Of a stretch of 38,677 nt of DNA, positions 18,276-33,601 are shown in pieces (the first letter of the stretch is position 1; each line of letters opens with the position of its first letter). The stretch covers positions 1 to 38,677 of the forward strand of contig DASSML010000169.1 of assembly GCA_035688895.1 (NCBI GenBank), read 5' to 3'. Source of the DNA: Gemmatimonadales bacterium (GTDB lineage: Bacteria; Gemmatimonadota; Gemmatimonadetes; Gemmatimonadales; GWC2-71-9). The position numbers were made by a program, and so were the translations under genes. Under the pieces are notes generated by a model. That model was given only the letters and a program-made list of their open reading frames with translations, searched no databases and was not told where the DNA came from.

Positions 18276-18279
18276 GGAA

Positions 18280-18322
18280 CTTCCCCTTTCCCCTTTCGCC
18301 TTTCCCCTTTCACTTTCCCCCC
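18280..18322 (+). repeat. 43-nt polypyrimidine tract with ~7-nt periodic CCCTTTC-like units filling the pabB-pabA spacer
   Basis: cttcccctttcccctttcgcctttcccctttcactttcccccc directly abuts ATG 18323. 41 of 43 bases are pyrimidines, in an otherwise G+C-balanced high-GC genome. Confidence 0.9.
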
Positions 18323-19542: not shown

Positions 19543-20500
19543 CGTCTTCGTCGAGGCCGCCGCGCGACTGCACTTCGGAGTACTCGATCTCCGGGGCAGT
19601 CTGGGGCGGCGATTCGGCGGGCTCGGCGCCGCCATTCCGTCCCCATCGCTGCTGCTCGAGGCGGCCCCCGCTTCGGCGGTGAGCGCGACGGGGCCCGACG
19701 CCGAGCGGGTAGACGAGTTCGCCCGGCGATTCCTGGCGCACCATGGCCTGAGCGGGGGTGCCCGCCTCACGCTCCACCGAGCCATCCCGCCGCACAGCGG
19801 TCTCGGGTCGGGGACCCAGCTGGGGCTGTCGGTCGCGCGGGCACTGGCCGAGCTGCACGGGCTCCCGATCGACGCTCCGACCCTGGCCACGGCAGTATCC
19901 CGAGGCCGCAGGTCGGCTATCGGGACCTGGTGCTTCGCCTATGGCGGGTTCATCGTCGAGGGGGGGCACCGTCCTCAGAAGGGGACAGTCGCGCCGTTAT
20001 TGGGACGCTACGAGGTCCCGGAGAGCTGGCGCTCCGTGGTCGCGGTGCCGCCCGGCGAGCCCGGATTGAGCGGCGAGGCCGAATCTGCCGCCTTCGAGCA
20101 GCTTCCCGCTCCTCCCGAGCGCGACCCCGAGCGGGTGGCCCACTTGGTGCTCATGCAGTTGCTACCGTCCCTGGTCGAGGGAGACCTGGCCGGATTCGGG
20201 GCGGCACTAACGGCGATTCAGCGACTTACCGGCGCGTGGTTCGCACCCTCGCAGGGCGGGATCTTCGCCCCGGGCCTGGGGCCCGAGTTGATCGCACGAA
20301 TGGCGGAGTGGGGCGCGGCCGGCGTGGGCCAGAGCTCGTGGGGGCCTGCGGTCTATGGGCTGGTCGATGGCATCGATCAGAGCCGGGCGCTGGCCGAGCG
20401 CGTCCGCGCGTCGCTCGGGGGGCGAGGGCAGGTTTTCGAGGGGGGATTCGCCCGGCACGGGGCCCGTGTCGGGTGGGGTGGACCCCCCACCCAACCCTGA
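19526..20500 (+). CDS. mptG: Beta-ribofuranosylaminobenzene 5'-phosphate (beta-RFAP) synthase, GHMP-kinase fold
   Basis: RLHFGVLDL.G..GRRFGGLG near the N-terminus and HSGLGSGTQLGL (GHMP motif) are typical of MptG. 324 aa. Confidence 0.8.
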   Translation: MSPANSVFVEAAARLHFGVLDLRGSLGRRFGGLGAAIPSPSLLLEAAPASAVSATGPDAERVDEFARRFLAHHGLSGGARLTLHRAIPPHSGLGSGTQLGLSVARALAELHGLPIDAPTLATAVSRGRRSAIGTWCFAYGGFIVEGGHRPQKGTVAPLLGRYEVPESWRSVVAVPPGEPGLSGEAESAAFEQLPAPPERDPERVAHLVLMQLLPSLVEGDLAGFGAALTAIQRLTGAWFAPSQGGIFAPGLGPELIARMAEWGAAGVGQSSWGPAVYGLVDGIDQSRALAERVRASLGGRGQVFEGGFARHGARVGWGGPPTQP

Positions 20501-20529
20501 TTGACAGTTCAATTTTGGGGCTGTATACT
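20501..20529 (+). promoter_or_regulatory. Near-consensus sigma70-type promoter TTGACA-N17-TATACT
   Basis: TTGACA at 20501-20506, an exact 17-nt spacer, and TATACT at 20524-20529. It begins on the base after the mptG stop codon. The expected TSS is near 20535-20537. Confidence 0.6.
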
Positions 20530-20535
20530 GGCCCA

Positions 20536-21179
20536 CCTAAGCCTCCCGTAATCGGCGACTTGGCCGGTTTCCGATTGGGAGCTTCGCGCTCGAAGTAGCA
20601 AGCGCGCTGCGATACCCAGAAGGATCCGGTAGTGGCTCAGGTGGTTTCACCAGGGTGTGAACCGCCTCCCCAGCAGCAGTCCTTTACAGACACACATTGC
20701 TGTGCAGCGGCGTCGCTGAGGGGTTTGATGGGCCTATTCCCGCTGGCCGACACCAATACTTGGCATTCTCCCGATCCGTGGGGCGGTCGCGCGGTCGCAG
20801 TGCGCGCGCGAGCCTGCCGCACGGATATCGTCTGGTGGTGGCGTACCGCCCTGCCGATCGTACACCCGACCGCTGGCTTGCCCACTCCATCCGACGACAT
20901 TTCCCACTTCCATCATCAGGCGCGGCGCCCCCGCACCCAACCGCAGGCTCGCTTGGCGAGCGCGGCTCGGTGCATCCGGCGGGCGGCGGCCCAGCGTAAC
21001 TCCCGTTGGACCGTCGCCGCAATCGCCGAACGCGGGCCCCCGCCCGCCGCCTCACGCTTCACGTAGTCGGCGCCTCCCGGCCCGCGGCACTCGTGGTCCC
21101 GTCGCCGAACCGGCGTCCGCAGCAGGTGGCACCCGAATGCAGTAGAGCAGTAGAACCACCCTTCATCCTGAGGTCAGTT
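20536..21179 (+). other. ~645-nt apparently non-coding leader or candidate structured RNA upstream of xoxF
   Basis: No convincing ORF. Track ORFs here are low-complexity with weaker third-position GC than neighbouring genes. Local hairpins include 20543-20581 (CTCCC/GGGAG plus AATCGG/CCGATT) and 20582-20595 (CTTCG-cgct-CGAAG). No Rfam family was recognised by eye. Confidence 0.35.
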
Positions 21180-23060
21180 ATGAACCGCTTTACCCAGAAG
21201 GTGCTGTCCGGCGGTATTGCGGCGGGGCTGAGCGTAGCCTTCGCCGTGTCCGCCAACGCCCAGGCGGCTCGTACAGGGGCATGGACCCTGGACGGGAAAG
21301 AGGGCGAATGGACGATGACCGGCCGTGACTACAGCCTGCAGCGGTTCAGCCCGCTCAAGCAGATCACGACCTCCAACGTCGCCGAGCTGCGGCCGGTCTG
21401 GTCCTTCTCCACCGGCACGCTCCGGGGCCACGAGGGCAACCCCCTGGTGGTCGGGAACGTGATGTACGTCAACACGTCCTTCCCGAACATCGTGTACGCG
21501 CTCGACCTGTCGAAGCCCGGCGCGCCGCAGATCTGGAAGTACGTGCCCAACCAGTCGCCCGACGCGATTCCAATCGCCTGCTGCGACCTGGTGAACCGCG
21601 GCACCGCGTACAGCCCGAGCGGGAAGGTCTACATCCAGGCCCTCCAGGGCGAGCTGATCGCGCTCGACGCGAAGACCGGCAAGGAGCTGTGGAAGGCCAA
21701 GCACCCGGATAAGTCCAACGCCGGTGTCGAGGCCAACGGCTACAAGCAGGGCGCTACCATGACCAACGCCCCGATCTACATCAAGACCAAGTCGGGCAAG
21801 GAAATGGTCATCGCGGGCATCTCCGGCGGTGAGTTCGGCGTTCGCGGCCGCGTCTCGGCCTTCGACGCCAACAGCGGCGCGCACCTGTGGACCGCCTACA
21901 GCACTGGTCCGGACAGCGAAGTCCTGATCGACGGCGACGCGAATGCCAACTATCCGTCGCACAAGGGCAAGGACCTCGGCGTCAGCACCTGGCAGGGCGA
22001 CGAGTGGAAGCGGGGCGGCGGCACCACCTGGGGCTGGTACTCCTACGACCCCGAGCTCGACCTCTTCTACTACAGCGTCGGCAACCCGGGCACCTGGAAC
22101 CCCGATCAGCGGCCGGGCGACAACAAGTGGTCGATGACCATCTTCGCGCGCCACCCGGACAACGGTCACGCCGCCTGGGCGTACCAGATGACCCCGCACG
22201 ATGAGTGGGACTATGACGGCGTGAACGAGAACGTCCTGTTCGAGAACGGCGGCAAGAAGCTGCTCGCCCACTTCGACCGGAACGGCATCGCCTACACCGT
22301 CGACCGCACCAACGGTAAGGTCCTCGTCGGCAACGCGTACGGCCCGATCAACTGGGCCAAGAACGGCGGCACCGGCACCCCGGTTGAGGGCGTCGTGTCG
22401 ACCGGCGTCCCGGTCAAGGATCCGAAGTACGGCACCTCCTCGAAGAAGAACGGCGAGGGCATCTGCCCGGCCGCCATCGGCTTCAAGGATCAGCAGCCCT
22501 CGGCGTACTCGCCGATCACCGGCCTCTTCTACGTCCCGGCGAACCACATCTGCATGGACTATGAGGGCGTCGAAGTGAAGTACACCGCCGGTCAGCCGTA
22601 CGTCGGCGCGATCGTGCGGATGTTCCCGGGCCCCGGCGGCCACCGTGGCCGGTTCATCGCCTGGGATCCGATGAAGGGTTCCGTGGTGTGGGAGATCAAG
22701 GAGAACCTCGCGGCGTACGGCGGGGCGCTCACCACGGCCGGCGGGCTCGTCTTCTACGGCACCATGGAAGGCTGGCTCAAGGGCGTCGATGCGAAGTCGG
22801 GCAAGGTCCTCTGGCAGTTCAAGACCCCGTCCGGCATCATCGGCAACCCGATGACCTACACCGGTCCCGACGGCAACCAGTACGTCGCCGTCTACTCCGG
22901 CATCGGTGGCTGGGCCGGCATCGGCGTAGCCGCTGGTATCGGCGCTGAAGATCCGACCGCCGGTCTCGGCGCGCTCGGCGCCTTCGGCGACGCGGGCAAC
23001 TTCTCGACCCAGGGCGGCGTCATGACCGTCTTCGGGCTCAAGAACATGGCCATGAAGTAA
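21180..23060 (+). CDS. xoxF: Lanthanide-type PQQ-dependent methanol dehydrogenase (XoxF)
   Basis: ATG 21180 has GAGG 7 nt upstream, and a signal peptide ends ...VSANAQA. The protein aligns by eye along its whole length to MxaF/XoxF: FSTG.LRGHEGNPLVV, vicinal ACCDLVNRG, GGGTTWGWYSYDP, DNKWSMTIFA, ICMDYEG and DPTAGLGALGAF. TPHDEWDYDGVNE carries Asp (22215-22217) where Ca-type MxaF has Ala. No mxaI follows. Confidence 0.92.
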   Translation: MNRFTQKVLSGGIAAGLSVAFAVSANAQAARTGAWTLDGKEGEWTMTGRDYSLQRFSPLKQITTSNVAELRPVWSFSTGTLRGHEGNPLVVGNVMYVNTSFPNIVYALDLSKPGAPQIWKYVPNQSPDAIPIACCDLVNRGTAYSPSGKVYIQALQGELIALDAKTGKELWKAKHPDKSNAGVEANGYKQGATMTNAPIYIKTKSGKEMVIAGISGGEFGVRGRVSAFDANSGAHLWTAYSTGPDSEVLIDGDANANYPSHKGKDLGVSTWQGDEWKRGGGTTWGWYSYDPELDLFYYSVGNPGTWNPDQRPGDNKWSMTIFARHPDNGHAAWAYQMTPHDEWDYDGVNENVLFENGGKKLLAHFDRNGIAYTVDRTNGKVLVGNAYGPINWAKNGGTGTPVEGVVSTGVPVKDPKYGTSSKKNGEGICPAAIGFKDQQPSAYSPITGLFYVPANHICMDYEGVEVKYTAGQPYVGAIVRMFPGPGGHRGRFIAWDPMKGSVVWEIKENLAAYGGALTTAGGLVFYGTMEGWLKGVDAKSGKVLWQFKTPSGIIGNPMTYTGPDGNQYVAVYSGIGGWAGIGVAAGIGAEDPTAGLGALGAFGDAGNFSTQGGVMTVFGLKNMAMK

Positions 23061-23127: not shown

Positions 23128-23167
23128 AGCGCCGGGGCGCCGTCAGCTCCGGCGCTTTGCCTTTCTC
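23128..23167 (+). terminator. Second xoxF-xoxJ intercistronic hairpin with T-rich tail (AGCGCCGG-N13-CCGGCGCT TTGCCTTTCT)
   Basis: 8-bp stem (23128-23135 and 23149-23156) followed by a pyrimidine/T-rich run. It lies upstream of the preferred xoxJ start at 23184. Confidence 0.4.
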
Positions 23168-23183
23168 CCAGAAGGGGTTGTCC

Positions 23184-24059
23184 ATGCAGCGCTGTGTCTC
23201 GCTCCGTCGCGTCGCCACCCTCGCCGGACTCGGCCTCGTCGGCTTCGTCCTCCCCGCCCGGGCCCAGCGGCCCGCGCCGCTCGACCCGGAAAAAATTCGG
23301 GTCTGCGCCGATCCGGACAACATGCCCTCCTCCAACGACAAGCTCGAGGGCTACGAGAACAAGCTGGCGACGCTGATCAGCCAGGAGCTCAAGGCCAAGC
23401 TGGAGTACGTCTGGTATCCCACCCGCCGAGGCTACTTCCGGATCCTCAACGGGATGTACTGCGACCTCGCCATGGAGGTCCCCGCCGGGCTCGACATGGC
23501 CGGCGCCACCAAGGCCTACTTCCGCTCCGGCTACGTCTTCGTGACCCGCAAGGGGAGCGGCCTCGACGACATCAACAGTCTGGCCGATCCCCGGCTCAAG
23601 AAGGTCAAGATCGGGGTCAACATCTACACCTCCGACGCCGAGAATTCCCCGCCCGCCATGGCGCTGAGCCACTACGGCGTGGTGGGGAACCTGGTCGGCT
23701 TCAGTACCTTCTTCGATGAGAACAATCGCCCGGAGGACATCGTCAACGCCGTCGCCAAGAAGGACGTCGACCTGGCGATCGCCTGGGGCCCGCTGGCGGG
23801 GTTCTACGCCAAGAGTGCCACCGTCCCGCTGGTCCTGACCGTCCTCCCTGCCAAGGACTCGCTCAGCGACTTCCCCTTCCAGTACAACATCGGGATCGCC
23901 GTGCGCCGAAGCGACAAGGAGTTCAAGGACAGCCTGAACGCGGTGCTCACCCGGCGCCAGTCGGACGTCCAGGCCATTCTGAAGGAGTATGCCGTCCCCC
24001 TGCTGCCCATCGAGCAGGGTCATGGCGGTGAGAAGGGCGAGGCCAAGGCCTCGAGCTGA
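23184..24059 (+). CDS. xoxJ: XoxJ/MoxJ-like periplasmic solute-binding-fold protein
   Basis: Start is taken at ATG 23184 (GAAGGGG upstream), giving a signal peptide ending ...LPARAQ. IRVCADPDNMPSSN and DLAIAWGPLAGFYA resemble the quinoprotein-dehydrogenase-associated family-3 binding proteins. Confidence 0.75.
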   Translation: MQRCVSLRRVATLAGLGLVGFVLPARAQRPAPLDPEKIRVCADPDNMPSSNDKLEGYENKLATLISQELKAKLEYVWYPTRRGYFRILNGMYCDLAMEVPAGLDMAGATKAYFRSGYVFVTRKGSGLDDINSLADPRLKKVKIGVNIYTSDAENSPPAMALSHYGVVGNLVGFSTFFDENNRPEDIVNAVAKKDVDLAIAWGPLAGFYAKSATVPLVLTVLPAKDSLSDFPFQYNIGIAVRRSDKEFKDSLNAVLTRRQSDVQAILKEYAVPLLPIEQGHGGEKGEAKASS

Positions 24060-24171
24060 CCCCCGTCCTGGCGGCACGGCGGTTGCGGAGAACGCCCGGC
24101 AGCGGTATTACAAGTTCAGATCCAGCATCCGAAACCCGTTCCGCCGGCCCCTCCTCCCGAGGGGCCTCGGC

Positions 24172-24651
24172 ATGACTTCCTCATTGTCCCCGAAAGGATC
24201 GTCCGCCAGCATGTGCATGCCGCTTCTCGCCGTTTTCCGCCGAGCGGTCCTGGGGACCGGCATCGTCGTCGGCGTTCTCGCAGTCGCTCCCCGGGTCCAG
24301 GCGCAGGAGCTCCGCGACGCCTATCACCAGGCGCCCCGGGACACCGTGTCTCAGGAAGTGTACGACGGGTGGAAGCAGTTCAACCTCAACTGCGCCCGCT
24401 GCCATGGCGAGGACGTGTTGGGAACCACCATCGCCCCCCACCTGATCCTGTCACTCAAGCCCGACGGTCCGATCAACACCAAGGAGCTGTTCATCCAGAC
24501 GGTGTGCGCGGGACGGCCGACCAAGGGGATGCCGTCGTGGTGTGCCCTCGGCATGGACATGGACAAGATCCAGAGCATCTACGACTACGTGAAGGGCAGA
24601 AGCGACGCGAAGATCGGCCCGGGACGACCGGCGGTCAAACCGACGGGCTGA
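24172..24651 (+). CDS. xoxG: Mono-haem c-type cytochrome (XoxG-like electron acceptor)
   Basis: Single CARCHG haem-binding motif, a GMPSW candidate Met ligand, and a signal peptide ending ...APRVQAQ. It sits after xoxJ. The start is ATG 24172 or 24211. Confidence 0.75.
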   Translation: MTSSLSPKGSSASMCMPLLAVFRRAVLGTGIVVGVLAVAPRVQAQELRDAYHQAPRDTVSQEVYDGWKQFNLNCARCHGEDVLGTTIAPHLILSLKPDGPINTKELFIQTVCAGRPTKGMPSWCALGMDMDKIQSIYDYVKGRSDAKIGPGRPAVKPTG

Positions 24652-24672: not shown

Positions 24673-24710
24673 AGGCCCCCGGCGGACGCGGGGGCCTTTT
24701 CGTTTGGTTT
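24673..24710 (+). terminator. Rho-independent terminator after xoxG
   Basis: 9-bp stem AGGCCCCCG / CGGGGGCCT (24673-24681 and 24689-24697) with a 7-nt loop, followed by TTTTCGTTTGGTTT. Confidence 0.75.
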
Positions 24711-24833: not shown

Positions 24834-25691
24834 ATGCCCGCCTTCTTGAGCCCCGGTCGCAGCCTCGCGATCCTCGCGCTGCTGGTCCTGCCGTCGGGGG
24901 CGTGGGCCAGCCCAACCGCCGACGCGCTCCGCACCGCGGCCCCCATCGACACGCCGACCGTCCGCCTCGACCTGGCCACGCTCAAGCAGCGGCTGGAGAG
25001 CGGCGGCAGCGACGGGCCCAACCTGGCTGGGGTAGACCTGAGCGGAATGGACCTCGCGGGGCTCGACTTCCGCCGGGCCAATCTGACCGGGTCCCGGCTC
25101 GCGGGCGCCAAGCTCCCGGGCGCGAACCTCTTCAGCTGCGACCTCACCGACGCCGACCTCTCGGGCGCCGATCTCACCAAGGCCAACATGGACGGGACCG
25201 TCCTTCGCCGGGCGGTGCTCAAACAGGCCAATCTCGCCGGGGCCAGCCTGTTCGCCACCATCATCGAGGCGGCCGACCTGAGCGGTGCGAACCTCTCCGG
25301 CACCCGGATCATCGGCTACCTGCGGAGCGCCAAGCTCCCCGGGGCCAGCCTGCAGAACAGCAACGCCGGAGCCGACCCCGGGAATCAGTCTATGGGGGTC
25401 ATGCGCGCCACCTTCGTCGGCGCCGACCTGAAGGGCGCCGACCTCAGCGGCGCCAACCTCTACAAGGCCGACTTCTCCCACGCCGACCTGACCGGGGCCA
25501 AGCTGCGGCGCGCCAACCTGGAGAACGCCGACCTGCTGCAGACCGACTTCACTCGGGCCGATCTGACCGGCGCCAAGCTGGCCAAGGCCGACATCGACGG
25601 GGCCATCTTCACCGGCGCGGTCGGCGTGTCTCAGATCCAGGGCCTGGATCAGGCCCGCAACCGTGACAAGGCAACCTTCGATGCCCACTGA
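24834..25691 (+). CDS. Secreted pentapeptide-repeat protein
   Basis: Signal peptide MPAFLSPGRSLAILALLVLPSGAWA. About 200 aa of A(D/N)LXX repeats follow (ADLSGADLTKANMDG, ANLSGTRI, ADLKGADLSGANLYKADFSHADLTGAKLRRANLENADLLQTDFTRADLTGAKLAKADIDGAIF). Confidence 0.85.
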   Translation: MPAFLSPGRSLAILALLVLPSGAWASPTADALRTAAPIDTPTVRLDLATLKQRLESGGSDGPNLAGVDLSGMDLAGLDFRRANLTGSRLAGAKLPGANLFSCDLTDADLSGADLTKANMDGTVLRRAVLKQANLAGASLFATIIEAADLSGANLSGTRIIGYLRSAKLPGASLQNSNAGADPGNQSMGVMRATFVGADLKGADLSGANLYKADFSHADLTGAKLRRANLENADLLQTDFTRADLTGAKLAKADIDGAIFTGAVGVSQIQGLDQARNRDKATFDAH

Positions 25692-26766
25692 TGCCCGAGG
25701 CGGGAGCGCACTGCTCCTGCTTGCCCTGCTTGCCTGCGGCGGCAGCGAAAAGCCTCCCGCAACCCAGGCCGCTGCCGACACGACCCCGCCGGCCGCCTCC
25801 ACTACTCCGGCCCTGATGGCCTACGTCCCCAACGAAGGCTCGGGCGAGGTCACGATCATCGACGTCGCGCTCGACAGCGCGGTCGGCACGATCCCGGTCG
25901 GTACCCGTCCGCGCGGCTCACGGGTGAGTCCGGACGGCACCAAGCTCTACGTAGCCTTGAGCGGCTCACCGCGCTGCCCGCCGACCATGCCCGACGAGGA
26001 GTGCGCGAAGCTCCGGGCCGACAAGAGCAAGGATGGCATCGGCGAGATCGATCTGGCCACACGGAAGGTCGTCCGTGTGCTCCCCGGCGGGTCCGACCCT
26101 GAGAACTTCGACATCAGCCAGGACGGCACCAAGCTCTTCATCTCCAACGAGGACGCGGGCGAAGCCACCTTCGTGGATATCGCCAGCGGCAAGGTGGAGA
26201 AGACGATCAAGGTGGGAGAGGAGCCCGAGGGCGTGAAGCTGGCGCCGGACGGTCACGAGGTGTGGGTCACCGCGGAAACCGCGCATGACGTGTCCGTGCT
26301 CGACACCCGGAGCGGCAAGGTGCTGGCCAAGATCGAGACCGGCAAGCGCCCCCGCAGCCTGGTCTTCAATCAAAACGGCACCCGGGCCTACGTGAGCTCG
26401 GAGGTCGGCGGCACGGTGGACATCATGGACGCCAAGACCTATAAGGTCCTCAAGACCTTGAAGATGCCGGAGGGAGCCAAGCCGATGGGCGTGGCCCTCT
26501 CGCCGGATGGCACGCGGCTCTACGTCGCCAACGGGCGGGCAGGTACCGTCTCGCTGGTGGATCTCGCCACCGACTCGGTGGTCACGAGCACCAAGGTGGG
26601 AACCCGGCCTTGGGGCATCGCGCTCACCCCGGATGGCAAGAAACTCTACGCCGCCAACGGTCCCTCGAACAACGTGAGCGTGCTCGACGCCGAGAACATG
26701 CAGGTGACGAAGACCGTGCCCGCGGGTGAGCTCCCCTGGGGCGTCACCCTCGGCAAGGCCCCGTGA
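25681..26766 (+). CDS. YVTN-family seven-bladed beta-propeller lipoprotein (PQQ-dependent-catabolism-associated type)
   Basis: Start is taken at ATG 25681, giving MPTDARGGSALLLLALLAC with a lipobox LLAC. The motif P.G...SPDG.KLYV.N....V.V.D recurs about 7 times. The track ORF starts at GTG 25663. Confidence 0.8.
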   Translation: MPTDARGGSALLLLALLACGGSEKPPATQAAADTTPPAASTTPALMAYVPNEGSGEVTIIDVALDSAVGTIPVGTRPRGSRVSPDGTKLYVALSGSPRCPPTMPDEECAKLRADKSKDGIGEIDLATRKVVRVLPGGSDPENFDISQDGTKLFISNEDAGEATFVDIASGKVEKTIKVGEEPEGVKLAPDGHEVWVTAETAHDVSVLDTRSGKVLAKIETGKRPRSLVFNQNGTRAYVSSEVGGTVDIMDAKTYKVLKTLKMPEGAKPMGVALSPDGTRLYVANGRAGTVSLVDLATDSVVTSTKVGTRPWGIALTPDGKKLYAANGPSNNVSVLDAENMQVTKTVPAGELPWGVTLGKAP

Positions 26767-27245
26767 TACGACCGACGGTCGCGTTCCTGCTCGCCGCCGC
26801 GGCCGGCGCCGGCAGCGCGGCGGGACCGAGCGGGTTCCGCTTCGAGCCCTACGCCCAGGTGGAGCTCCGCAAGCTCTGGAGCGACAGCCGGGAGAGCGGC
26901 CAGGAGCGGGTCGCCTGCCTGGCGGGGGTGATGGACGACGACTCGGTGCGGGTGACCGGCATGCGTGCCCTCGATACCTGGGCCGACTCCCTGATGATCT
27001 CGGCCAGCCAATCGCTCGAGGAGTGCCATCCGCCGGAGTGGGTCGGCACCGTCCATACCCACATCGCGCTCCGGGGCGGCCGGCCCTACAGCACCTTCTC
27101 GGGAGCCGACCGGGGCGTGAATACCCTCTGGTGGCGCCGGTGGAGCGTAGACGGCACTTTCTGCGTGCTCTTCACCGAGCAGGACGCCTACTGCGAGGTC
27201 GACGGCCCGCACGGACTCCGCATCTTCCCCCATGCCAGCTACTGA
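26763..27245 (+). CDS. Secreted JAB/MPN (JAMM-motif)-like protein, paralogue 1
   Basis: GTG 26763 overlaps the propeller stop (GTGA), and a signal-like N-terminus is present (VAFLLAAAAGAGSA). QERVACLAG (Glu), GTVHTH (HxH) and FSGAD (SxxD) resemble the E...HxH...SxxD JAMM signature, e.g. EACGVLAG / HSHT...PSRTD of Mec-type enzymes. The HxH-to-S spacer is longer than the usual 7 residues. Confidence 0.5.
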   Translation: MIRPTVAFLLAAAAGAGSAAGPSGFRFEPYAQVELRKLWSDSRESGQERVACLAGVMDDDSVRVTGMRALDTWADSLMISASQSLEECHPPEWVGTVHTHIALRGGRPYSTFSGADRGVNTLWWRRWSVDGTFCVLFTEQDAYCEVDGPHGLRIFPHASY

Positions 27246-27762
27246 GGGTCGGCGCCGCACCCTCGTCACCCTGGTCGCCTCGCTGCTCCTCGCCGCCAAC
27301 GCGTCGGCCCAGGACAGCCTCCCCCACCGGGCCACTCCCACCTTCCGCTTTGCCCCCGAAGCCGGTCGCACCCTCCGGAGCCTCTGGGAGGCCAGCGTCG
27401 CCGCCCAGCAGGAGCGGGTCGCCTGCCTGGCCGCCGAGGTCCGGAACGATTCCGTCTTCGTACTCCGCGTGCTCCCGCTGGAGACCTCCGGCGCCGACTC
27501 GATGACCATCGCATCCGACGAGTCGATCGAGCGGTGCGGACCGCCCTCCTGGTCCGGAACGGTCCACAGCCACGTGGCGGAGTACAGCGATGGACTCCCG
27601 TCCACCACCTTCTCGGCTCAGGATCGCGGCGTGATGCGTCGGTGGTACGAGCGCTGGCGGACCGACGGCGTCTTCTGCGTGGTATACAGTCGGCGGGATG
27701 CCCACTGCGAAGCCGACGGCGTGGTCGGAGGGATCCGCTCCCAGCCCAGCGTCACCCGCTGA
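27232..27762 (+). CDS. Secreted JAB/MPN (JAMM-motif)-like protein, paralogue 2
   Basis: Clear Sec signal (LVTLVASLLLAANASAQ). It has the same motif set as paralogue 1 (QERVACLAA, GTVHSH, FSAQD, DGVFCVV, AHCEADG), with about 40% identity by manual alignment. It overlaps the paralogue 1 stop by 14 nt. Confidence 0.5.
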   Translation: MPATEGRRRTLVTLVASLLLAANASAQDSLPHRATPTFRFAPEAGRTLRSLWEASVAAQQERVACLAAEVRNDSVFVLRVLPLETSGADSMTIASDESIERCGPPSWSGTVHSHVAEYSDGLPSTTFSAQDRGVMRRWYERWRTDGVFCVVYSRRDAHCEADGVVGGIRSQPSVTR

Positions 27763-27770
27763 GCCGGAGC

Positions 27771-27792
27771 CGGCCGCTCAGCTGAGCGGCCG
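27771..27792. terminator. Perfect 22-nt palindrome between convergent operons (CGGCCGCTCAG/CTGAGCGGCCG)
   Basis: It lies 9 nt after the JAB-like paralogue 2 stop and covers the DoxX-like stop codon. It can form the same hairpin on both strands. There is no U-tract. Confidence 0.4.
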
Positions 27793-28320
27793 TCGGGTCA
27801 GCGGCGACTTGGGTCGGTTCTCGGCGAGGCGGCCATCGATGCCCCAGGTCCGCCCGGCGCGAGCAAAGAAGAAGGTGATCATCAGCAGCGTGAGCAGCAA
27901 GTGGAAGCCCTGCTGCCCCGGCGACATCCACTGCGTGGCCAGGCCGTAGTTGATCACCAGCACGAGCCCCACGATGGACGCGACACCGGTCAGGAGGCCG
28001 AGCGTGAGTCCCAGGCCGGCCACCGTCTCGCCCCACGCCGTCAGATGCGCGAACAGACTGGCGTGCGTCAGCACGGTGTTCTCGAGGAAGTGCTTGTAGA
28101 AGAGGATCGGGTTGTCCGAGGCCTGCTTCGTGACGATCGCCGGCATCACGTTGATCCACCGGTCCGATACCGCCGGAAACGGGAGGAAGCCACCCAGCAG
28201 TGCGATGCTCATCTTGGTCACCAGGGACTTCACGAAATAGAGTCCCACGCCGATTCGGATGATCGCGAGCCATTGAGGGGCATGTTCGATGCTGACGGGC
28301 GAGCGGGCACGATAGGCCAT
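27778..28320 (-). CDS. DoxX/DoxD-like integral membrane protein
   Basis: Start is taken at the ATG giving MAYRARSPVSIEHAPQWLAIIRIGVGLYF, 28 nt after the oligopeptidase stop. Four hydrophobic segments are present, and the WGETVAGLGLTLGLLT pattern is typical of DoxX/DoxD proteins. Confidence 0.55.
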   Translation of the reverse strand: MAYRARSPVSIEHAPQWLAIIRIGVGLYFVKSLVTKMSIALLGGFLPFPAVSDRWINVMPAIVTKQASDNPILFYKHFLENTVLTHASLFAHLTAWGETVAGLGLTLGLLTGVASIVGLVLVINYGLATQWMSPGQQGFHLLLTLLMITFFFARAGRTWGIDGRLAENRPKSPLTRRPLS

Positions 28321-28348
28321 TTGGCGGAGCTCCCGGTGTTCGGTTGCC

Positions 28349-30400
28349 TTAAACCTCCACCCCCAACTGCCAAAACACAAACGTCCAGGTATCGGTGAGC
28401 TCGTCCAGCACCTTGTTGAGCGGCTTGCCCGCACCGTGGCCCGCCCGGGCCTCCAGGCGGAGCAGCACCGGCCGGTCCGACGATGTGGCCGCCTGCAGCC
28501 GGGCCGTCATCTTGCGGGCGTGCATCGGATCGACCCGGGTGTCGCTCTCGGCGGTCGCGAGCAGCACCGCCGGGTAGGCCACGCCGTCGCGCACATGCTG
28601 ATAGGGTGAGTAGGCGCGCAGCCAGCGGAACTGCTCCGGGTCCTCGGCCGATCCGTACTCCGGGATCCACAGCCGGGCGATGAGAAACCGATGGTACCGC
28701 AGCATGTCGAGCAGCGGCACCTGAATCACCACCGCGCCGAACAGCTCGGGGCGCTGGGTCAGCACCGCCCCCATCAGCAGCCCGCCGTTGCTCCCGCCCG
28801 CCGCCGCGAGGCGCTCCGGCCTGGTATACCCTTCCCGGATCAGCCACTCCGCGGCCGCGATGAAGTCGTCGAAGCTGTTCTGCTTGTGTCCCAGCATTCC
28901 GCCCTGGTGCCAGGCCTCGCCATACTCGCCGCCGCCCCGAATGTTTGGAATGGCGACGACGCCGCCTTGCTCCAGCCACAAGAGCAGCGAGCGGGAGAAC
29001 GCCGGCGTCATGCTGATGTTGAACCCGCCGTATCCGCTCAGGTAGACCGGATTGGCCCCGTTGCGCGACAGCCCCGTCCGGTGGATGACGAACATCGTCA
29101 CCTCGGTCCCGTCCTTCGAGCGATAAGCGACCTGCCGCACCTCGTAGCGGCTCGGATCCAGGTCGGCGGCCACCCGCCGCCAGAGCGTGCTGGTGCCGGC
29201 CGGCAGCTCCAGCCGATAGACCGTCGGCGGCACGGTGTACGAAGTGAAGCCGTAAAACACCTCGTCGCCGTCCCACTCGCCGGTGAGACCGAAGAGCGAG
29301 CCGATCGTGGGAAGGGCCACGTCCCGGACCTCGTTTCCGTCGAGGTCCGCCAGACGGAGCCGCGACGAGGCTCGCTCCAGATAGCTCAGCGCCAGCGCCG
29401 AGCCGGCGACCTTGAATCCATCGAGCACGGCGTCGGCGCTCGGCGGGACGATCTCTCGCCAACCCGCGCGCGCCGGCCGCTCGGGGTCCACCAGGTAGAG
29501 TCGGTAGGTCGGCGCGTCGAGATTGGTCCGGAGATACAGCCGGCCGCGCACGACCTCGCCGTCGAAGGTGGCCGGCAGGTCCTTCGCGACGGGCACCGGC
29601 GGCGTACCAGCCACACGGTCCTGCAGGTAGAGATCGGTCTGGTCGAACGTGCGCGCGACGCCGATCACCAGCCATCGCCCGTCGGGACTCAGCCCGACCC
29701 CCGGCCAGTGCTCCTTTTCCTCCGGGCGGAAGACCAGCGAATCGGCCTCGGGATCGGTGCGGAGCCGGTGAAAGAACACCGAGCGGTGATAGTGCTCCTC
29801 GCCCTCGGGCACCTCGCCGGGCGCAGGATAGCGGGTGTAGTAGAAGCCGCTGCCGTCGGGAAGCCACGCCAGATCCGCCGCTCGCGTCCGCGGGATCCGA
29901 TCCGGCAGCGGCGCGCCCGAGCTTACCTCCAGCAGGTGCAGCACGCTCTGCTCGCTGCCGTTTTCCGAGAGCCCGTATGCGAGGAGGCGCCCGTCGTCGC
30001 TGGGGTAGAACCAGTCGAGCGCGGTGGTGCCCTGGGCATCGAGGGAGTTCGGGTCGATCAGGACCCGGTCCTCGCCCTCGCGGCCCTCCCGCACATAGAG
30101 CACCGGTTGATTCTGCCGGCCGTCGCGCCGCTGGTAGAAGTAACGTCCGGCCACCGGTTCCGGCGTGCTCAGGGCGCCGATCGAGAGGAGCTCATCGAGG
30201 CGGCCGCGGAGGCGGGCCCGCCCCGGCACCGCCGCGAGCAGCGACTCGGTCAGCGCGTTCTGGCTCGCGGTCCATGCCTGGGTGCGCGGGTCGTCCCCCT
30301 GCTCCAGCCAGCGGTAGGGATCGGGAATCGACTCGCCATGGAGGACTTCGACCTCCTCACCGGCGGAGGTCGGCGGATAGGGCGGGCGGGACGACATCAC
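28349..30400 (-). CDS. Prolyl oligopeptidase (S9A family serine peptidase)
   Basis: 683 aa with an N-terminal beta-propeller region (DPYRWLE). The catalytic domain has GGSNGGLL (nucleophile Ser), later Asp/His regions (ESDTRVDP, GHGAGK). Confidence 0.9.
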   Translation of the reverse strand: MMSSRPPYPPTSAGEEVEVLHGESIPDPYRWLEQGDDPRTQAWTASQNALTESLLAAVPGRARLRGRLDELLSIGALSTPEPVAGRYFYQRRDGRQNQPVLYVREGREGEDRVLIDPNSLDAQGTTALDWFYPSDDGRLLAYGLSENGSEQSVLHLLEVSSGAPLPDRIPRTRAADLAWLPDGSGFYYTRYPAPGEVPEGEEHYHRSVFFHRLRTDPEADSLVFRPEEKEHWPGVGLSPDGRWLVIGVARTFDQTDLYLQDRVAGTPPVPVAKDLPATFDGEVVRGRLYLRTNLDAPTYRLYLVDPERPARAGWREIVPPSADAVLDGFKVAGSALALSYLERASSRLRLADLDGNEVRDVALPTIGSLFGLTGEWDGDEVFYGFTSYTVPPTVYRLELPAGTSTLWRRVAADLDPSRYEVRQVAYRSKDGTEVTMFVIHRTGLSRNGANPVYLSGYGGFNISMTPAFSRSLLLWLEQGGVVAIPNIRGGGEYGEAWHQGGMLGHKQNSFDDFIAAAEWLIREGYTRPERLAAAGGSNGGLLMGAVLTQRPELFGAVVIQVPLLDMLRYHRFLIARLWIPEYGSAEDPEQFRWLRAYSPYQHVRDGVAYPAVLLATAESDTRVDPMHARKMTARLQAATSSDRPVLLRLEARAGHGAGKPLNKVLDELTDTWTFVFWQLGVEV

Positions 30401-31852: not shown

Positions 31853-33532
31853 ATGCGAACCTACCGAGATGGTACCGGCGGCCGGGGGCTGGCGCTTCTG
31901 GCCTTGGTGGTCTGCGTCGCGTCTCCGCTGGTCGCTCAGGAACGTCGCTACCTTGTCGAGCTCGGCGCGGCGGGAACGTATCAGTCCTTCGACAGCTTAG
32001 CCGGGCTCAAGAGCGCCCCGGGCTGGCTGCTACGAGGGGGTGTCTGGCTCCCGCTCAACTTCTCGGTAGAGGGGGAGTACACCTCCGCCACGCCCAAGGC
32101 CAAGGCTGACGACGTTGGGACCTCCTACCACGCTCTGTTTCTCTCATTGCTCTACAACATCCCAGTTGGACGGAGCAACTGGCTCTATCTCAAGGCCGGT
32201 GGCGGGTCCAACAGCTACGCAGGCAATAGGTACGATGAATGCCCACCACCGGGCGGGCCGACCCCCGGCGCGAACACCGCATGCGGTAGAGCGGGGGCCC
32301 TGGCCGGCGGTGCAGGCTTTCGGGTCGGAATTACCCCAATCCTCTTTGCACGGGGCGAGGCGTTGATTTCCGGCTACAAGTCAACAGCCAAGGGCTGCGA
32401 CACCGCGTGCCCATCGGACAAGACCCTCACCAACTTCGGCCTTAACGTCGGCCTGAGCGTCATGCTCGGCAGCAAGCCGATCCCCGACTCCGACAACGAC
32501 GGCATCCTCGACAACAAGGATCGCTGCCCCGACACCCCCGCCGGTGCCCAGGTGGACGGCCAGGGCTGCAGCGGCGACTCGGACACCGACGGCGTCCCCG
32601 ACGGTGTAGATCGGTGCGCCGGCACGCCGCTCGGCGCCACGGTAGATGCAAAAGGTTGCACTCGCGACTCCGACGGGGACAACATCCCCGACGGCATCGA
32701 TCGCTGCCCGGACACTCCCGCCGGCGTCCTGGTCGACCCCAACGGCTGCGCCAAGGACAGCGACGGCGACTCCATCCCGGACGGCCTCGACCGCTGCTCC
32801 GAGACCCCACGCGGCGCCACCGTGGACGCCCTGGGCTGCCCCGGCGACGAGGATGGGGACGGTGTCCTCGACGGCCTCGACCGGTGCCCCCGGACCACGC
32901 CCGGCGCCACGGTGAATCCCTCGGGCTGCGCCGCCGGCCAGGCGCCGGCACGGAACGCCCCGACGGGACAACCTGCTCCTACCGGACAGGCGAACCCGCC
33001 GGCGCAAGCGACCCCGTCGGGAGCGCCGGTGGCACCGGTGCCTCCACCGGGTGGGATACGATCGCCCCAACCGGTTCCCAAGCCTGCGGTGAAGGACTCC
33101 GTGAATCTCAAGCCCGGCGCGGCGGCAGCAGCAGTGCCCGGTGCAGCGGCCGCCGCGGGCAAGCCCAGAGCGAGCATGATCGTGGCGGGAGTCATTCCCG
33201 GTGTGGTGTTCGATGAGGGTTCAGCCCGGCTGCGTCCCGAGTCCTACGTGCCGCTCGACTCGATCGCCGACATCCTGCAGGCCGACACCACGATTCGAGT
33301 CGAGATCGGAGCGTACACCGACACCAGCACGCCGACGGCGGACGCCCAGCGTCTCACCAGCCTCCAGGCCGACGCCGTGCGCACCTATCTGGTGACCAAG
33401 GGTGTAAAGTTCCAGCAGGTGGTTCCCCAGGGCTACGGATCGACCGTTCCCATCACGCCCGATACCAGCCCCCGAGGACGTGCCGCCAATCGTCGAGTCG
33501 AGATCAGACCAGTGACAGGCACGGGCCCCTGA
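31853..33532 (+). CDS. OmpA-family outer-membrane protein with thrombospondin type-3 (Ca-binding) repeats
   Basis: Signal peptide (LALLALVVCVASPLVAQ) and an N-terminal beta-barrel-like region. Five DxDxDG..D..DRCP repeats follow, then a Pro/Ala-rich linker. The C-terminal OmpA_C domain has GAYTDTS, ADAVRTYLV and ANRRVEI. Confidence 0.85.
   Translation: MRTYRDGTGGRGLALLALVVCVASPLVAQERRYLVELGAAGTYQSFDSLAGLKSAPGWLLRGGVWLPLNFSVEGEYTSATPKAKADDVGTSYHALFLSLLYNIPVGRSNWLYLKAGGGSNSYAGNRYDECPPPGGPTPGANTACGRAGALAGGAGFRVGITPILFARGEALISGYKSTAKGCDTACPSDKTLTNFGLNVGLSVMLGSKPIPDSDNDGILDNKDRCPDTPAGAQVDGQGCSGDSDTDGVPDGVDRCAGTPLGATVDAKGCTRDSDGDNIPDGIDRCPDTPAGVLVDPNGCAKDSDGDSIPDGLDRCSETPRGATVDALGCPGDEDGDGVLDGLDRCPRTTPGATVNPSGCAAGQAPARNAPTGQPAPTGQANPPAQATPSGAPVAPVPPPGGIRSPQPVPKPAVKDSVNLKPGAAAAAVPGAAAAAGKPRASMIVAGVIPGVVFDEGSARLRPESYVPLDSIADILQADTTIRVEIGAYTDTSTPTADAQRLTSLQADAVRTYLVTKGVKFQQVVPQGYGSTVPITPDTSPRGRAANRRVEIRPVTGTGP
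32486..32935 (+). repeat. Five tandem 90-nt (30-aa) TSP3 coding repeats
   Basis: DSDNDGILDNKDRCPDTPAGAQVDGQGCSG, DSDTDGVPDGVDRCAGTPLGATVDAKGCTR, DSDGDNIPDGIDRCPDTPAGVLVDPNGCAK, DSDGDSIPDGLDRCSETPRGATVDALGCPG and DEDGDGVLDGLDRCPRTTPGATVNPSGCAA. Confidence 0.9.
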
Positions 33533-33537: not shown

Positions 33538-33587
33538 AGAGTTGCCGGAATGTGGGCGTCGCATCGCACCCGCGTTCCGGCAACTCT
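33538..33587 (+). terminator. Long hairpin after the ompA-like gene (13-bp perfect stem AGAGTTGCCGGAA / TTCCGGCAACTCT, 24-nt loop)
   Basis: Arms lie at 33538-33550 and 33575-33587, starting 6 nt after the stop. There is no U-tract, so the function (terminator or processing/stability element) is uncertain. Confidence 0.4.
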
Positions 33588-33601
33588 CACTTCAGGGCCA
33601 C

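Follow-up and report, generated by a model that had tools for sequence, protein, structure and literature searches.

The window analysed here, a 38,677-nt stretch of DNA, comes from a soil Gemmatimonadales bacterium and contains two small overlapping ORFs, A and B, that adjoin a lanthanide-type methanol dehydrogenase cluster. In the methylotrophy island around them, XoxF occurs together with the tetrahydromethanopterin (H4MPT) C1 pathway. The features of this part of the window are as follows.

20501..20529, plus strand: sigma-70-like promoter match (TTGACA-17-TATACT, 11/12) upstream of xoxF; a consensus match only
21006..23060, plus strand: XoxF-type PQQ methanol/ethanol dehydrogenase (TIGR03075, 631 bits; WDYDG)
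23157..24059, plus strand: XoxJ/MoxJ-like periplasmic binding protein (TIGR03871, 256.7 bits against a cutoff of 212)
23989..24651, plus strand: XoxG-like mono-haem cytochrome c (PF13442; weak TIGR03874 and PedF matches)
24673..24697, plus strand: terminator-like hairpin of 9 pairs (8 G-C) with a T-rich tail, between the cytochrome c and pentapeptide genes
24834..25691, plus strand: exported pentapeptide-repeat protein, PedD-like (PF00805, E 1.7e-50)
25663..26766, plus strand: YVTN/YncE-type beta-propeller, PedA2-like, 'PQQ-dependent catabolism-associated' (PF21783, TIGR02276 repeats)
26763..27245, plus strand: A, predicted JAB/MPN+ paralogue of 160 aa (GTGA-overlap ORF; 225 homologues; AlphaFold2 model; GC3 0.91)
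27232..27762, plus strand: B, predicted JAB/MPN+ paralogue of 176 aa (14-nt-overlap ORF; 1117 homologues; AlphaFold2 model; GC3 0.86)
27772..27791, no strand: GC-rich palindrome GGCCGCTCAGCTGAGCGGCC in the 15-nt spacer that separates the convergent B and DoxX genes; it overlaps the stop codon of DoxX
27778..28434, minus strand: DoxX/DoxD-family membrane protein, convergent with B (PF04173, PF07681)

The xox context given in the initial annotation was recovered: the genes upstream of A encode a PQQ dehydrogenase, a MoxJ-like protein, a cytochrome c, a protein of pentapeptide repeats and a YVTN propeller. The extra Asp in the WDYDG motif of the dehydrogenase is typical of lanthanide-dependent enzymes. 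Its likely start is M59, at ~21180, and the true start of the cytochrome c is probably 3' of 23989. The propeller, which has a lipobox-like N-terminus (LLAC), scored 251 bits against TIGR03866, under the 287-bit cutoff. An S9 prolyl oligopeptidase (POP) is encoded two genes downstream of B on the opposite strand. Domain searches of the window revealed no ubiquitin-like or other evident substrate gene near A and B.

The two ORFs and both overlaps were present as first described. ORF A starts with GTG at 26763-26765, within the GTGA that it shares with the propeller TGA stop (26764-26766), and the ATG of ORF B at 27232 lies in the 14 nt shared with ORF A, whose stop is at 27243-27245. Across related tandem loci, the 4-nt overlapping start for A was possible in 60 of 112, and 104 of 112 had a start codon between -50 and +60 nt from the propeller stop. 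BLASTP aligned A with B at 46% identity over 157 residues (E 8e-43, far beyond chance); the proposed paralogy therefore stands, and the original figure of about 40% identity was slightly low. The GC3 values of A and B compare with 0.87-0.92 for adjacent genes and 0.62-0.79 for alternative ORFs overlapping them. A and B are real genes and are paralogues of each other.

The pair had been described as translationally coupled to the xox accessory operon. The overlap with the propeller gene and the xox genes upstream agree with this, but the hairpin at 24673-24697 separates the A/B unit from xoxG. This hairpin is strong, and a comparable one followed by a T-rich tail was present in 36 of 60 related loci. 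The pentapeptide gene is probably the first of a pentapeptide-propeller-A-B unit, and the hairpin suggests that these four genes form their own transcription unit with A and B as its last two cistrons. Because the hairpin lies 3' of the cytochrome c gene, A and B are coupled to the pentapeptide-propeller unit and not demonstrably to the xoxF-J-G transcript. Beyond B, the 55-nt region of the palindrome folds at -31.9 kcal/mol (RNAfold), and the palindrome is a candidate bidirectional terminator.

Neither A nor B had a Pfam, NCBIfam, PHROG or PDB-sequence match at E<=10. At 90% identity, the JAB family to which they belong forms >1,100 clusters; an exhaustive search, which covered 1.84 billion representatives, returned only 136 clusters. 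Every named homologue is a 'hypothetical protein' from a Gemmatimonadales assembly. Since named members are confined to one bacterial order, much of the collinear synteny described below reflects vertical descent. Prok-JAB (PF14464) was the sole Pfam family matched by more than one member, always below threshold (E 0.005-0.03); the match of P0290 had an E-value of 0.005, and that of P0372 (E 0.014) spanned positions 10-113 of the 114 in the profile. When the most divergent members were built into a profile of their own, its top, though weak, PDB sequence match was Sst2/AMSH (4msd_A; E 0.31), with E, HxH and SxxD aligned in register.

We then considered the fold, for which the initial annotation had suggested a Foldseek comparison of predicted structures. 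The AlphaFold2 model of B had a mean pLDDT of 77, and values over 90 prevailed in its core; the model of A had a pLDDT of 75. For either model, the top 50 listed Foldseek matches in the PDB were exclusively MPN/JAB proteins. The best E-values of the two models were 4.5e-6 and 7e-7 at a probability of 1.00, with moderate TM scores of 0.45-0.61. The A model matched CSN5 (4f7o; E 7e-7, TM 0.61), the B model matched CSN6, Rpn11, Rpn8, BubCD and archaeal Rpn11, and the top PDB matches over both models included Rpn11, CSN5/6, Rpn8 and BRCC36. In a viral structure library, phage JAB proteins ranked first. In the B model, HxH closes strand 109-113, which carries H112, and S128 to D131 open the next helix, 129-142. 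This placement of HxH at a strand end and SxxD at a helix start is, in the model, the canonical JAMM layout. On these predicted structures, A and B have the MPN/JAB fold, and their family is a previously unannotated branch of the known JAB/MPN superfamily.

Scaffold MPN- domains typically lack JAMM residues. Both A and B keep the full set, at the following positions.

A, plus strand: E48 at 26904-26906; H98/H100 at 27054-27062; S113/D116 at 27099-27110
B, plus strand: E61 at 27412-27414; H112/H114 at 27565-27573; S128/D131 at 27613-27624

Each motif listed in the initial annotation was found, and the core residues were invariant among 52 close homologues. In B numbering, the invariant positions in this set were E61, C65, C102, P104, P105, W107, G109, H112, H114, S128, D131, R132, W138, R141, W142, F148, C149, C159, E160, D162 and G163. 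When 31 sequences down to ~20% identity were aligned, the only invariant columns were E61, H112, H114, S128 and D131, together with C65/C102. Conservation of the E/H/H/S/D positions, which had been named as a check on the JAMM assignment, therefore extends from close to deeply divergent members. The canonical JAMM motif is E-Xn-H-[S/T]-H-X7-S-X-X-D (PMC300881). As first noted, A has 12 and B has 13 residues between HxH and Ser, where H-[S/T]-H-x(7)-S-x-x-D has seven. The length of this spacer varies across homologues; in the most distant members (P0371, P0372 and P0374) the spacing is near canonical.

This spacer, the lack of a significant JAB profile match for A and B and TM scores of ~0.5 would be expected if the MPN fold were a modelling artefact, the true fold being an unrelated alpha/beta one and the likeness to JAMM coincidental. 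We regard this as hardly credible, since two separately built models agree, every one of the 50 listed PDB matches per model is an MPN protein, and the best matches in the viral library are phage JAB proteins. In addition, the five JAMM residues are ordered, invariant and on the expected secondary-structure elements, and the best sequence matches of divergent members, weak as they are, were independently to Prok-JAB and to AMSH.

A His2Asp site prefers Zn2+ to hard lanthanide ions on grounds of coordination chemistry, and judging from their residues A and B probably bind Zn2+. An improbable alternative is that they are non-catalytic metal binders, serving XoxF as a Zn/lanthanide chaperone or buffer, or else forming an MPN scaffold for the propeller and pentapeptide proteins. 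Many MPN proteins are non-catalytic, with Rpn8 and CSN6 among the best structural matches here, and the locus encodes a lanthanide enzyme. The mature proteins are acidic (pI 5.3 and 6.1), and the additional carboxylates D73, D89, E160 and D162 are invariant within the A/B clade. However, E160 and D162 are not conserved outside this clade in the deep alignment of 31 sequences, and a His2Asp site suits Zn2+ better than lanthanides. The invariance of E, H, H, S and D over deep divergence also argues against a non-catalytic role, as it includes the Glu and Ser, which have catalytic roles rather than metal ligation (PMC300881).

The N-termini of both proteins carry positive charges followed by a hydrophobic stretch. 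The signal-like segments and the four conserved Cys reported initially were both seen, as follows.

A, ~aa 1-20: signal-like N-terminus
B, ~aa 1-26: predicted signal peptide, ending ANASA and followed by QD
A: C52, C88, C134, C144
B: C65, C102, C149, C159

A hydrophobic N-terminal stretch, defined as a 9-residue hydropathy window of at least 2.0, was found family-wide in 316 of 336 full-length members, and some distant members have lipobox-like sites. Exactly four Cys follow the E..AC anchor in 293 of 346 members. The best reading of these sequence features is that A and B are Sec-exported, periplasmic proteins, probably stabilised by two disulfides.

We examined the surroundings of the family in 146 non-redundant groups of loci, comprising 104 tandem pairs and 42 single copies. 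Synteny with PQQ-dehydrogenase genes had been raised as a check, and xox-system genes were present on the same contig in 101/104 tandem and 23/42 single-copy groups, in at least five distinct gene arrangements. In L091, H4MPT genes are followed by PQQ-DH, MoxJ, cytochrome c, propeller and JAB; the next gene, PFK, has the opposite orientation, and neither DoxX nor POP is present. In L087, cytochrome c, pentapeptide and propeller precede an opposite-strand DoxX, after which comes JAB. JAB is immediately upstream of PQQ-DH in L117, adjoins the beta-RFAP synthase gene in L100, L105, L109 and L115, and in L116 pairs divergently with DoxX, after which come PabC, PabA, PabB and Fae (opposite strand) and then PQQ-DH. 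Seven single-copy groups had no xox or DoxX neighbour, and the same was true of all the most distant members examined; in both cases the contigs were mostly short. The best reading of this gene order is that A and B are lineage-specific accessories of the XoxF/H4MPT methylotrophy island.

DoxX is as recurrent a neighbour of JAB as the xox genes are, lying beside it in 86/104 tandem and 23/42 single-copy groups. The DoxX proteins near distant JAB homologues are 46-52% identical to that of the window across contexts. The adjacency persists in loci without a visible xox gene (L088, L093 and L124) and through changes of orientation, which is convergent in the window and divergent in L084, L087, L088, L093 and L107-L125. 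A TonB-dependent receptor accompanies the DoxX-JAB pair in four groups. These observations would fit a possible, if unlikely, reading in which A and B are still exported JAMM-fold proteins but work mainly with DoxX (say, in a role in the periplasm that involves thiols, quinones or envelope stress, or in the processing of something taken up by a TonB-dependent receptor) and are next to xox only because they share the methylotrophy island. Against this, the lineage of L091, L092, L094, L095 and L123 keeps propeller-JAB in the xox operon with no DoxX nearby, and many DoxX-linked loci have xox/H4MPT genes within a few kb (L087, L097, L102, L112, L115 and L116). In the lineage of the window, DoxX is encoded on the other strand and lies beyond a strong hairpin, so that it is not co-transcribed with A and B, which also counts against this reading. 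A role with DoxX and a role as XoxF accessories are not mutually exclusive.

The POP gene, present in 80/104 tandem groups, and the PFK gene, both unrelated, are equally syntenic with A and B. In 23 tandem groups, the gene after B, in the same orientation, encodes a Peptidase_M3 protein of 674 aa that has a signal-like N-terminus. With these peptidases as neighbours, A and B could be general periplasmic peptide degraders acting alongside a secreted M3 oligopeptidase and the S9 prolyl oligopeptidase, unrelated to methanol oxidation. This is very improbable, because POP, encoded on the opposite strand, lacks an evident signal peptide in its translation and is missing from L087, L091 and L116, the M3 gene is missing from the window and most loci, and the linkage of JAB to xox/H4MPT genes persists where both peptidases are absent.

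None of the three checks that the initial annotation had set, on fold, motif conservation and synteny, contradicted its interpretation. Collectively, these results favour the reading that A and B are periplasmic JAMM-type metallohydrolases that serve as accessories of the XoxF/H4MPT island, to which we assign a probability of roughly 0.6. In the exported proteins, His-x-His and Asp would bind the metal, Glu would activate water and Ser would stabilise the intermediate, as in AfJAMM and Rpn11. The bond cleaved would be an amide or isopeptide one, in a periplasmic substrate tied to the XoxF system. By analogy with many MPN proteins, A and B may form a heterodimer, though not an obligatory one, given that single-copy lineages exist. 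The DoxX membrane protein would be a likely partner. A stronger form of the proposal, which we consider distinctly unlikely, is that A and B constitute the first periplasmic JAMM amidase/isopeptidase system, with DoxX as membrane partner, and that lanthanide-dependent methanol oxidation in Gemmatimonadota requires them as a lineage-specific factor for maturation or metal supply. In that role they might cleave an amide-linked lanthanide chelator imported via a TonB-dependent receptor or, alternatively, strip an isopeptide or pro-peptide modification from XoxF, the propeller or the pentapeptide partner.

JAB/MPN metalloenzymes are textbook cytoplasmic or nuclear isopeptidases. An exported, apparently disulfide-bonded family with a conserved catalytic set would extend the superfamily to the periplasm, and if the stronger form of the proposal were true, isopeptide-type chemistry thought to be confined to the cytoplasm would also run in the bacterial periplasm. 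Gemmatimonadota are abundant soil bacteria, and we know of no experimental study of their XoxF systems. A and B are concrete candidate accessory factors of lanthanide methylotrophy, packed with enigmatic PedD-like and PedA2-like proteins and with a recurrent DoxX adjacent. Defining the family would also better annotate soil metagenomes, where its members are now 'hypothetical' without a Pfam or NCBIfam match.

Compared with known lanthanide systems, A and B share the neighbourhood, and probably the compartment, of the accessory genes XoxJ/PedG, XoxG/PedF, PedD and PedA2. The genes to which they are coupled directly are the PedD-like and PedA2-like ones, and PedD, an uncharacterised accessory gene in a review of the ped cluster, and PedA2 are likewise without an assigned function (PMC12997753). 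As the initial annotation held, a JAB module is not a described xox/mxa accessory: the Pseudomonas ped cluster table contains no JAB protein (PMC12997753), and the account of Acidobacteria/Gemmatimonadetes XoxF3 clusters mentions conserved hypotheticals of 110-130 aa and NRAMP but no JAB protein (PMC10875860). Among the papers listed in our literature search, none combined xoxF with a JAB/JAMM term.

The stand-alone prokaryotic and archaeal JAMM/MPN+ enzymes (AfJAMM, HvJAMM1, Mec+/CysO, DRJAMM and the Caldiarchaeum Rpn11 homologue; PF14464, M67) are, like A and B, single-domain proteins of 130-180 aa with an MPN fold and the complete E...H-x-H...S-x-x-D set, and the Caldiarchaeum homologue (6fjv, 6fnn) was among the structural matches of our models. 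Unlike these enzymes, A and B have predicted signal peptides and four conserved Cys, a spacer of 12-13 rather than 7 residues and no Ubl gene nearby, and they fall under every Pfam threshold. We rejected a Ubl-linked JAMM system of the CysO/Mec+, SAMP/JAMM1 or MoaD/DRJAMM kind, as such systems are cytoplasmic and A and B carry export signals. Among the neighbours in the window and related loci, there was no beta-grasp/ThiS/MoaD-like Gly-Gly protein or E1-like enzyme.

To our knowledge, the Tox-JAB domains of polymorphic toxins are the only JAB domains previously noted to exit the cytoplasm. The cytoplasmic or phage-associated location that the initial annotation gave as the norm for JAB proteins is the usual case, but Tox-JAB-1 and Tox-JAB-2 are secreted (PMC3482391), so exported JAB domains are not wholly unprecedented. 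Tox-JAB-2 also has the same residue pattern as A and B, namely E, H[ST]H, S and D (PMC3482391). Tox-JAB domains are, however, C-terminal modules of large RHS and other toxins with immunity genes and are predicted nucleases, whereas A and B are stand-alone Sec-type proteins. A toxin module of this type was rejected for A and B, given their stand-alone size of 160 and 176 aa, their metabolic context and a DUF4329 match in just 1 of 31 family members (E 0.065).

The best structural matches were to Rpn11-Rpn8, CSN5-CSN6 and BRCC36-KIAA0157, which are paired MPN paralogues, as A and B are adjacent overlapping paralogues. These eukaryotic pairs reside in large cytosolic or nuclear complexes. In their MPN+/MPN- arrangement one partner lacks the metal site, whereas A and B both keep the JAMM residues.

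Two ORFs, referred to here as A and B, are present as the initial annotation had described them, arranged in tandem with overlapping ends.

26763-27245, + strand: A, ORF of 160 aa, GTG start at 26763
27232-27762, + strand: B, ORF of 176 aa, ATG start

The TGA stop of the beta-propeller gene upstream and the start codon of A overlap as GTGA, and the start codon of B lies inside A, 14 nt before its end. GC3 was 0.91 for A and 0.86 for B, compared to 0.87-0.92 for the neighbouring genes and 0.62-0.79 for alternative overlapping ORFs. Alignment of A with B by BLASTP gave 46% identity over 157 residues (E 8e-43), slightly closer than the 40% or so first proposed; judged by sequence, the two are certainly paralogues. 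The motifs originally listed for the pair were all conserved in a 52-sequence alignment, with invariant core residues that include the four Cys. The junctions were tight across 112 tandem loci. An A start with a -4 overlap was possible in 60 of them, some A start codon lay -50 to +60 nt from the propeller stop in 104, and the gap between propeller and A exceeded 1 kb in five. The B stop was a median of 20 nt from the end of the DoxX gene that follows.

Database homologues numbered 225 for A and 1,117 for B, each unnamed or labelled 'hypothetical protein', and those with a named source organism were Gemmatimonadales without exception. No precomputed Pfam domain occurred among the homologue matches listed, and neither A nor B matched Pfam, NCBIfam or PHROGs at E<=10. 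Sequence searches of the PDB (B by phmmer, and the profiles A2 and A3) returned only noise, namely a PH domain and an apparent designed protein. Searched exhaustively with HMMER, a set of 1.84 billion representative proteins yielded just 136 clusters, indicating a narrow family. Some lipoprotein-type members with low GC fell outside the high-GC Gemmatimonadales setting (loci L082/L083, GC 0.39-0.41, and proteins P0345 and P0369), flanked by small ORFs without a Pfam match.

Structure search bore out the JAB/MPN assignment that had at first been made tentatively. AlphaFold2 models of B (mean pLDDT 77, with most 10-residue blocks in 41-160 at 89-95) and, built separately, of A (mean pLDDT 75) had a common topology of helix, two long strands, helix, strand, helix and beta-hairpin. 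When the models were compared with the PDB using Foldseek, MPN/JAB proteins made up all 50 of the matches listed for each, including Rpn11, Rpn8, CSN5, CSN6, eIF3f/h, BRCC36, a Caldiarchaeum Rpn11 homologue and bacterial BubCD (best E 4.5e-6 for B and 7e-7 for A; probability 1.00; TM 0.45-0.61). Among predicted viral structures, phage 'JAB domain-containing' proteins came out on top.

To locate the conserved positions, we used a deep alignment of A, B and 29 of the most divergent members, reaching down to about 20% identity. Exactly seven columns were invariant: E61, C65, C102, H112, H114, S128 and D131 (B numbering). The JAMM metal site of AfJAMM reads E-Xn-H-[S/T]-H-X7-S-X-X-D, in which zinc is bound by His, His and Asp, and Glu holds a water (PMC300881). 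On sequence grounds, E61, H112, H114, S128 and D131 make up the complete JAMM catalytic set as in AfJAMM. In the B model, H112 closes strand 109-113 and S128/D131 open helix 129-142, so that the predicted placing of HxH and SxxD is the canonical JAMM arrangement. The sole deviation from the canonical site is the HxH-to-Ser spacer, which measured 12 residues in A and 13 in B, as previously noted, compared to the canonical 7; the length of this loop varies across the family. We also weighed lanthanide binding of an EF-hand or lanmodulin-like type and dropped it: the family conserves His2Asp plus Glu as ligands, and the additional carboxylates E160 and D162 lose their conservation beyond the A/B clade.

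Two weak sequence bridges agree with the fold result. Of the Pfam families, only Prok-JAB (PF14464) matched two or more members, with the family protein P0372 aligning weakly to profile positions 10-113 of 114 (E 0.014). A profile of the most divergent members had as its top PDB match the JAMM deubiquitinase Sst2/AMSH (4msd_A), at a non-significant E of 0.31 and with E, HxH and SxxD in register. The phage lambda tail protein K annotated in J02459 contains just the last third of a Prok-JAB domain, followed by NlpC/P60, too little for an hhalign comparison with the family profile to be informative. Collectively, the fold and motif results argue strongly that A and B have an MPN fold with an intact JAMM constellation, to which we assign a probability of about 0.9. 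The A/B family is real, previously unannotated and narrowly distributed within the JAB/MPN+ superfamily.

Both proteins carry the signal-like segment claimed for them, a positively charged N-terminus followed by a hydrophobic stretch, with a cleavage-type site in B (ANASA|QD). A signal-like N-terminal feature was found in 316 of 336 full-length family members, and some low-GC distant members have lipobox-like sites instead, such as LVAC in P0345. A RadC-like nuclease was set aside as a candidate on account of these export signals. Exactly four Cys follow the E..AC anchor in 293 of the 346 members that bear it, and in the B model C149 and C159 lie on either side of the predicted C-terminal hairpin, making two periplasmic disulfides a reasonable inference. 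Since the upstream pentapeptide-repeat and propeller proteins also start with signal-like or lipobox-like sequences, the whole unit appears to be extracytoplasmic.

The window is a methylotrophy island, in which A and B stand at the end of a series of genes for H4MPT-dependent C1 metabolism and PQQ-dependent alcohol oxidation.

1599-3257: FhcA-like amidohydrolase
3235-4167: formylmethanofuran:H4MPT formyltransferase
4829-5890: methenyl-H4MPT cyclohydrolase
5921-6715: EthD-domain protein
6719-7588: RimK-like ATP-grasp protein
15376-20500: dihydropteroate-synthase-like, PabB-like, DUF447 and beta-RFAP synthase genes (H4MPT/pABA biosynthesis)
20501-20529, + strand: sigma-70-like promoter match, TTGACA-17-TATACT, 11/12, directly after the beta-RFAP synthase stop
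24673-24697, + strand: strong terminator-like hairpin, 9 pairs of which 8 are G-C, then the T-rich tail TTTCGTTTGG, between the xoxG-like cytochrome c and pentapeptide genes
25663-26766, + strand: propeller protein, starting MTRQPSMPTDARGGSALLLLALLACGG, with a lipobox-like LLAC
27772-27791: GC-rich palindrome, filling the 15-nt spacer between B and DoxX
27778-28434, - strand: DoxX/DoxD-family membrane protein
31853-33532, + strand: OmpA-family outer-membrane protein, N-terminal beta-barrel and thrombospondin type-3 (calcium-binding) repeats
33542-34831: DUF4015 putative glycosyl hydrolase, after the OmpA-family gene

The H4MPT genes are followed by a PQQ dehydrogenase of the methanol/ethanol family with the motif WDYDG, whose extra Asp marks lanthanide-dependent XoxF-type enzymes. 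Then come a MoxJ/XoxJ-like binding protein, cytochrome c, a pentapeptide-repeat protein, the YVTN propeller, A and B, and beyond B, on the opposite strand, DoxX, a prolyl oligopeptidase (POP) and a phosphofructokinase (PFK). The propeller protein may be a lipoprotein, judging from its lipobox-like site. It scored 251 bits against TIGR03866, under the 287-bit cutoff, which suggests a divergent PedA2-like subfamily. Elsewhere in the window, a 1025-aa minus-strand ORF (10272-13349) overlaps the plus-strand ORFs 10365-11450 and 11454-13007; these two, and ORF 310-1602, had no Pfam match. Over the stretch that runs from beta-RFAP synthase to POP, a public JGI metagenome contig (L140, Ga0310810_10005249) encodes proteins 97-100% identical to those of the window, and it is probably from the same population.

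The pair had been proposed to be translationally coupled to the xox accessory operon. Coupling to the propeller unit held; the hairpin after the cytochrome c gene argues for a unit separate from, or attenuated relative to, the xoxF transcript. About 650 nt, a long leader, separate the promoter match from the likely start of xoxF. The hairpin divides the apparent xox operon in two, with xoxF-J-G before it and pentapeptide-propeller-A-B after it, and 36 of 60 related loci have a comparable one. We therefore regard pentapeptide-propeller-A-B as a separate, tightly packed unit, into which, from the sequence, transcription of xoxF-J-G may read through. It is likely that A and B are exported and co-transcribed with the pentapeptide and propeller genes.

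Across 80 loci from species-representative genomes, almost all titled Gemmatimonadales, a single order was conserved: RFAP synthase, PQQ dehydrogenase, MoxJ, cytochrome c, pentapeptide, propeller, A and B, with DoxX, POP and PFK on the opposite strand. Because POP and PFK, which are unrelated, are conserved to the same degree, collinearity alone proves little; we set it aside as independent evidence and gave weight to rearranged loci instead. These were sought in contigs encoding distant homologues and by scanning metagenomes with the outgroup clade as seed, and near-identical loci were collapsed into 146 groups.

Groups of loci with a partner gene on the contig
Tandem A-B, 104 groups: xox-system gene, 101; xox or RFAP-synthase gene, 101; DoxX, 86; none of these, 2
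Single copy, 42 groups: xox-system gene, 23; xox or RFAP-synthase gene, 26; DoxX, 23; none of these, 7

Three loci (L091, L092, L123) have H4MPT genes, PQQ dehydrogenase, MoxJ, cytochrome c, propeller and a single JAB gene with opposite-strand PFK, and no pentapeptide, DoxX or POP gene; the shorter contigs L094/L095 show the MoxJ-to-PFK stretch of this order. In L087, cytochrome c, pentapeptide and propeller are followed by opposite-strand DoxX and then JAB, and in L117 JAB lies immediately 5' of PQQ dehydrogenase and MoxJ. L116 has a divergent DoxX-JAB pair, PabC-, PabA- and PabB-like genes and Fae on the opposite strand, and then PQQ dehydrogenase and MoxJ. JAB and beta-RFAP synthase are convergent in six further loci (L100, L101, L105, L106, L109, L115). 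The proposed synteny with PQQ-dehydrogenase genes thus survives rearrangement, and this is genuine evidence that the family is functionally connected to the methylotrophy module.

The link to DoxX is equally persistent. DoxX neighbours JAB in the window and likewise in L084, L087, L088, L093 and L107-L125; the adjacency is kept in convergent or divergent orientation and in loci without a visible xox gene, and the DoxX proteins share 46-52% identity across contexts. Four DoxX-JAB groups without a visible xox gene also contain a TonB-dependent receptor. L088 also carries an SBP56 gene (selenium-binding/methanethiol-oxidase-like). The most distant members (L081, L082/L083, L085, L090), on short contigs, had no recurrent partner, neither xox nor DoxX. 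The substrate of A and B has about an even chance of belonging to the XoxF system itself; the alternative would be a DoxX-centred envelope function within the methylotrophy island.

In a rough neighbour-joining tree, single-copy proteins encoded directly after the propeller (P0466, P0405) clustered with paralogue A, B formed a sister clade to the A group, and DoxX-adjacent forms branched outside both. A B-like gene stands alone after the propeller in some loci. As single-copy loci exist, an A-B heterodimer cannot be obligatory for the family; in the tandem lineage it would be plausible, given the overlapping cistrons and MPN precedent. A gene for a CFA-synthase-type SAM methyltransferase (PF02353, about 480 aa) separates propeller and A in L054, L058, L065 and L069, all four examined of the five loci with a gap above 1 kb, and breaks the translational coupling there. 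Between B and DoxX, immediately following B and on its strand, 23 tandem groups (e.g. L010, L011, L026-L028, L132, L145, L153, L175) carry a Peptidase_M3 gene, absent from the window; in L030 (10520-12544) it encodes 674 aa with a signal-like N-terminus (PF01432, E 2e-101), and the frame-split copy in L011 has an HEFGH zinc motif. An insert of about 750 nt occupies the interval between B and DoxX in L038, L050, L060 and L066; that of L038 holds a minus-strand gene for a YceI-like protein (PF04264), and the other three loci show a gap of equal size.

As to function, we infer at somewhat better than even odds that A and B are active metallohydrolases rather than scaffolds, since the catalytic Glu and Ser are as invariant as the metal ligands. 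Glu and Ser serve catalysis, not metal binding, and MPN- scaffolds typically lose JAMM residues. No ubiquitin-like gene lies near A and B. Speculatively, A and B could act on one of the cluster's periplasmic proteins, on a metal chelator with an amide linkage or on an isopeptide of the cell envelope.

The pentapeptide (PedD) and propeller (PedA2) genes count among the recognised but uncharacterised accessory genes of PQQ-dehydrogenase clusters, for which no JAB protein is listed (PMC12997753). For the XoxF3 clusters of Gemmatimonadetes and Acidobacteria, a published study reports conserved hypothetical proteins of 110-130 aa and NRAMP, and nothing resembling A or B (PMC10875860). Among the papers listed by our literature search, none pairs xoxF with a JAB or JAMM term. 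The original interpretation is supported overall and is refined by the unit boundary after cytochrome c, the DoxX association and the precedent of secreted toxin JAB domains. The statement that prokaryotic JAB proteins are normally cytoplasmic or phage-tail associated needs qualifying, as Tox-JAB-1 and Tox-JAB-2 are a partial precedent for secretion; these modules belong to large polymorphic toxins that have immunity genes as partners (PMC3482391), and A and B are not of this kind. A and B come closest to the stand-alone prokaryotic JAMM enzymes (Prok-JAB, MEROPS M67), with which they share the fold and catalytic residues. In contrast to these, A and B have no Ubl partner, reach no curated threshold, and differ in compartment, spacer length and Cys content. 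The A/B family is unusual both in its location, being probably exported, and in its setting within an XoxF/H4MPT methylotrophy island beside a DoxX partner.
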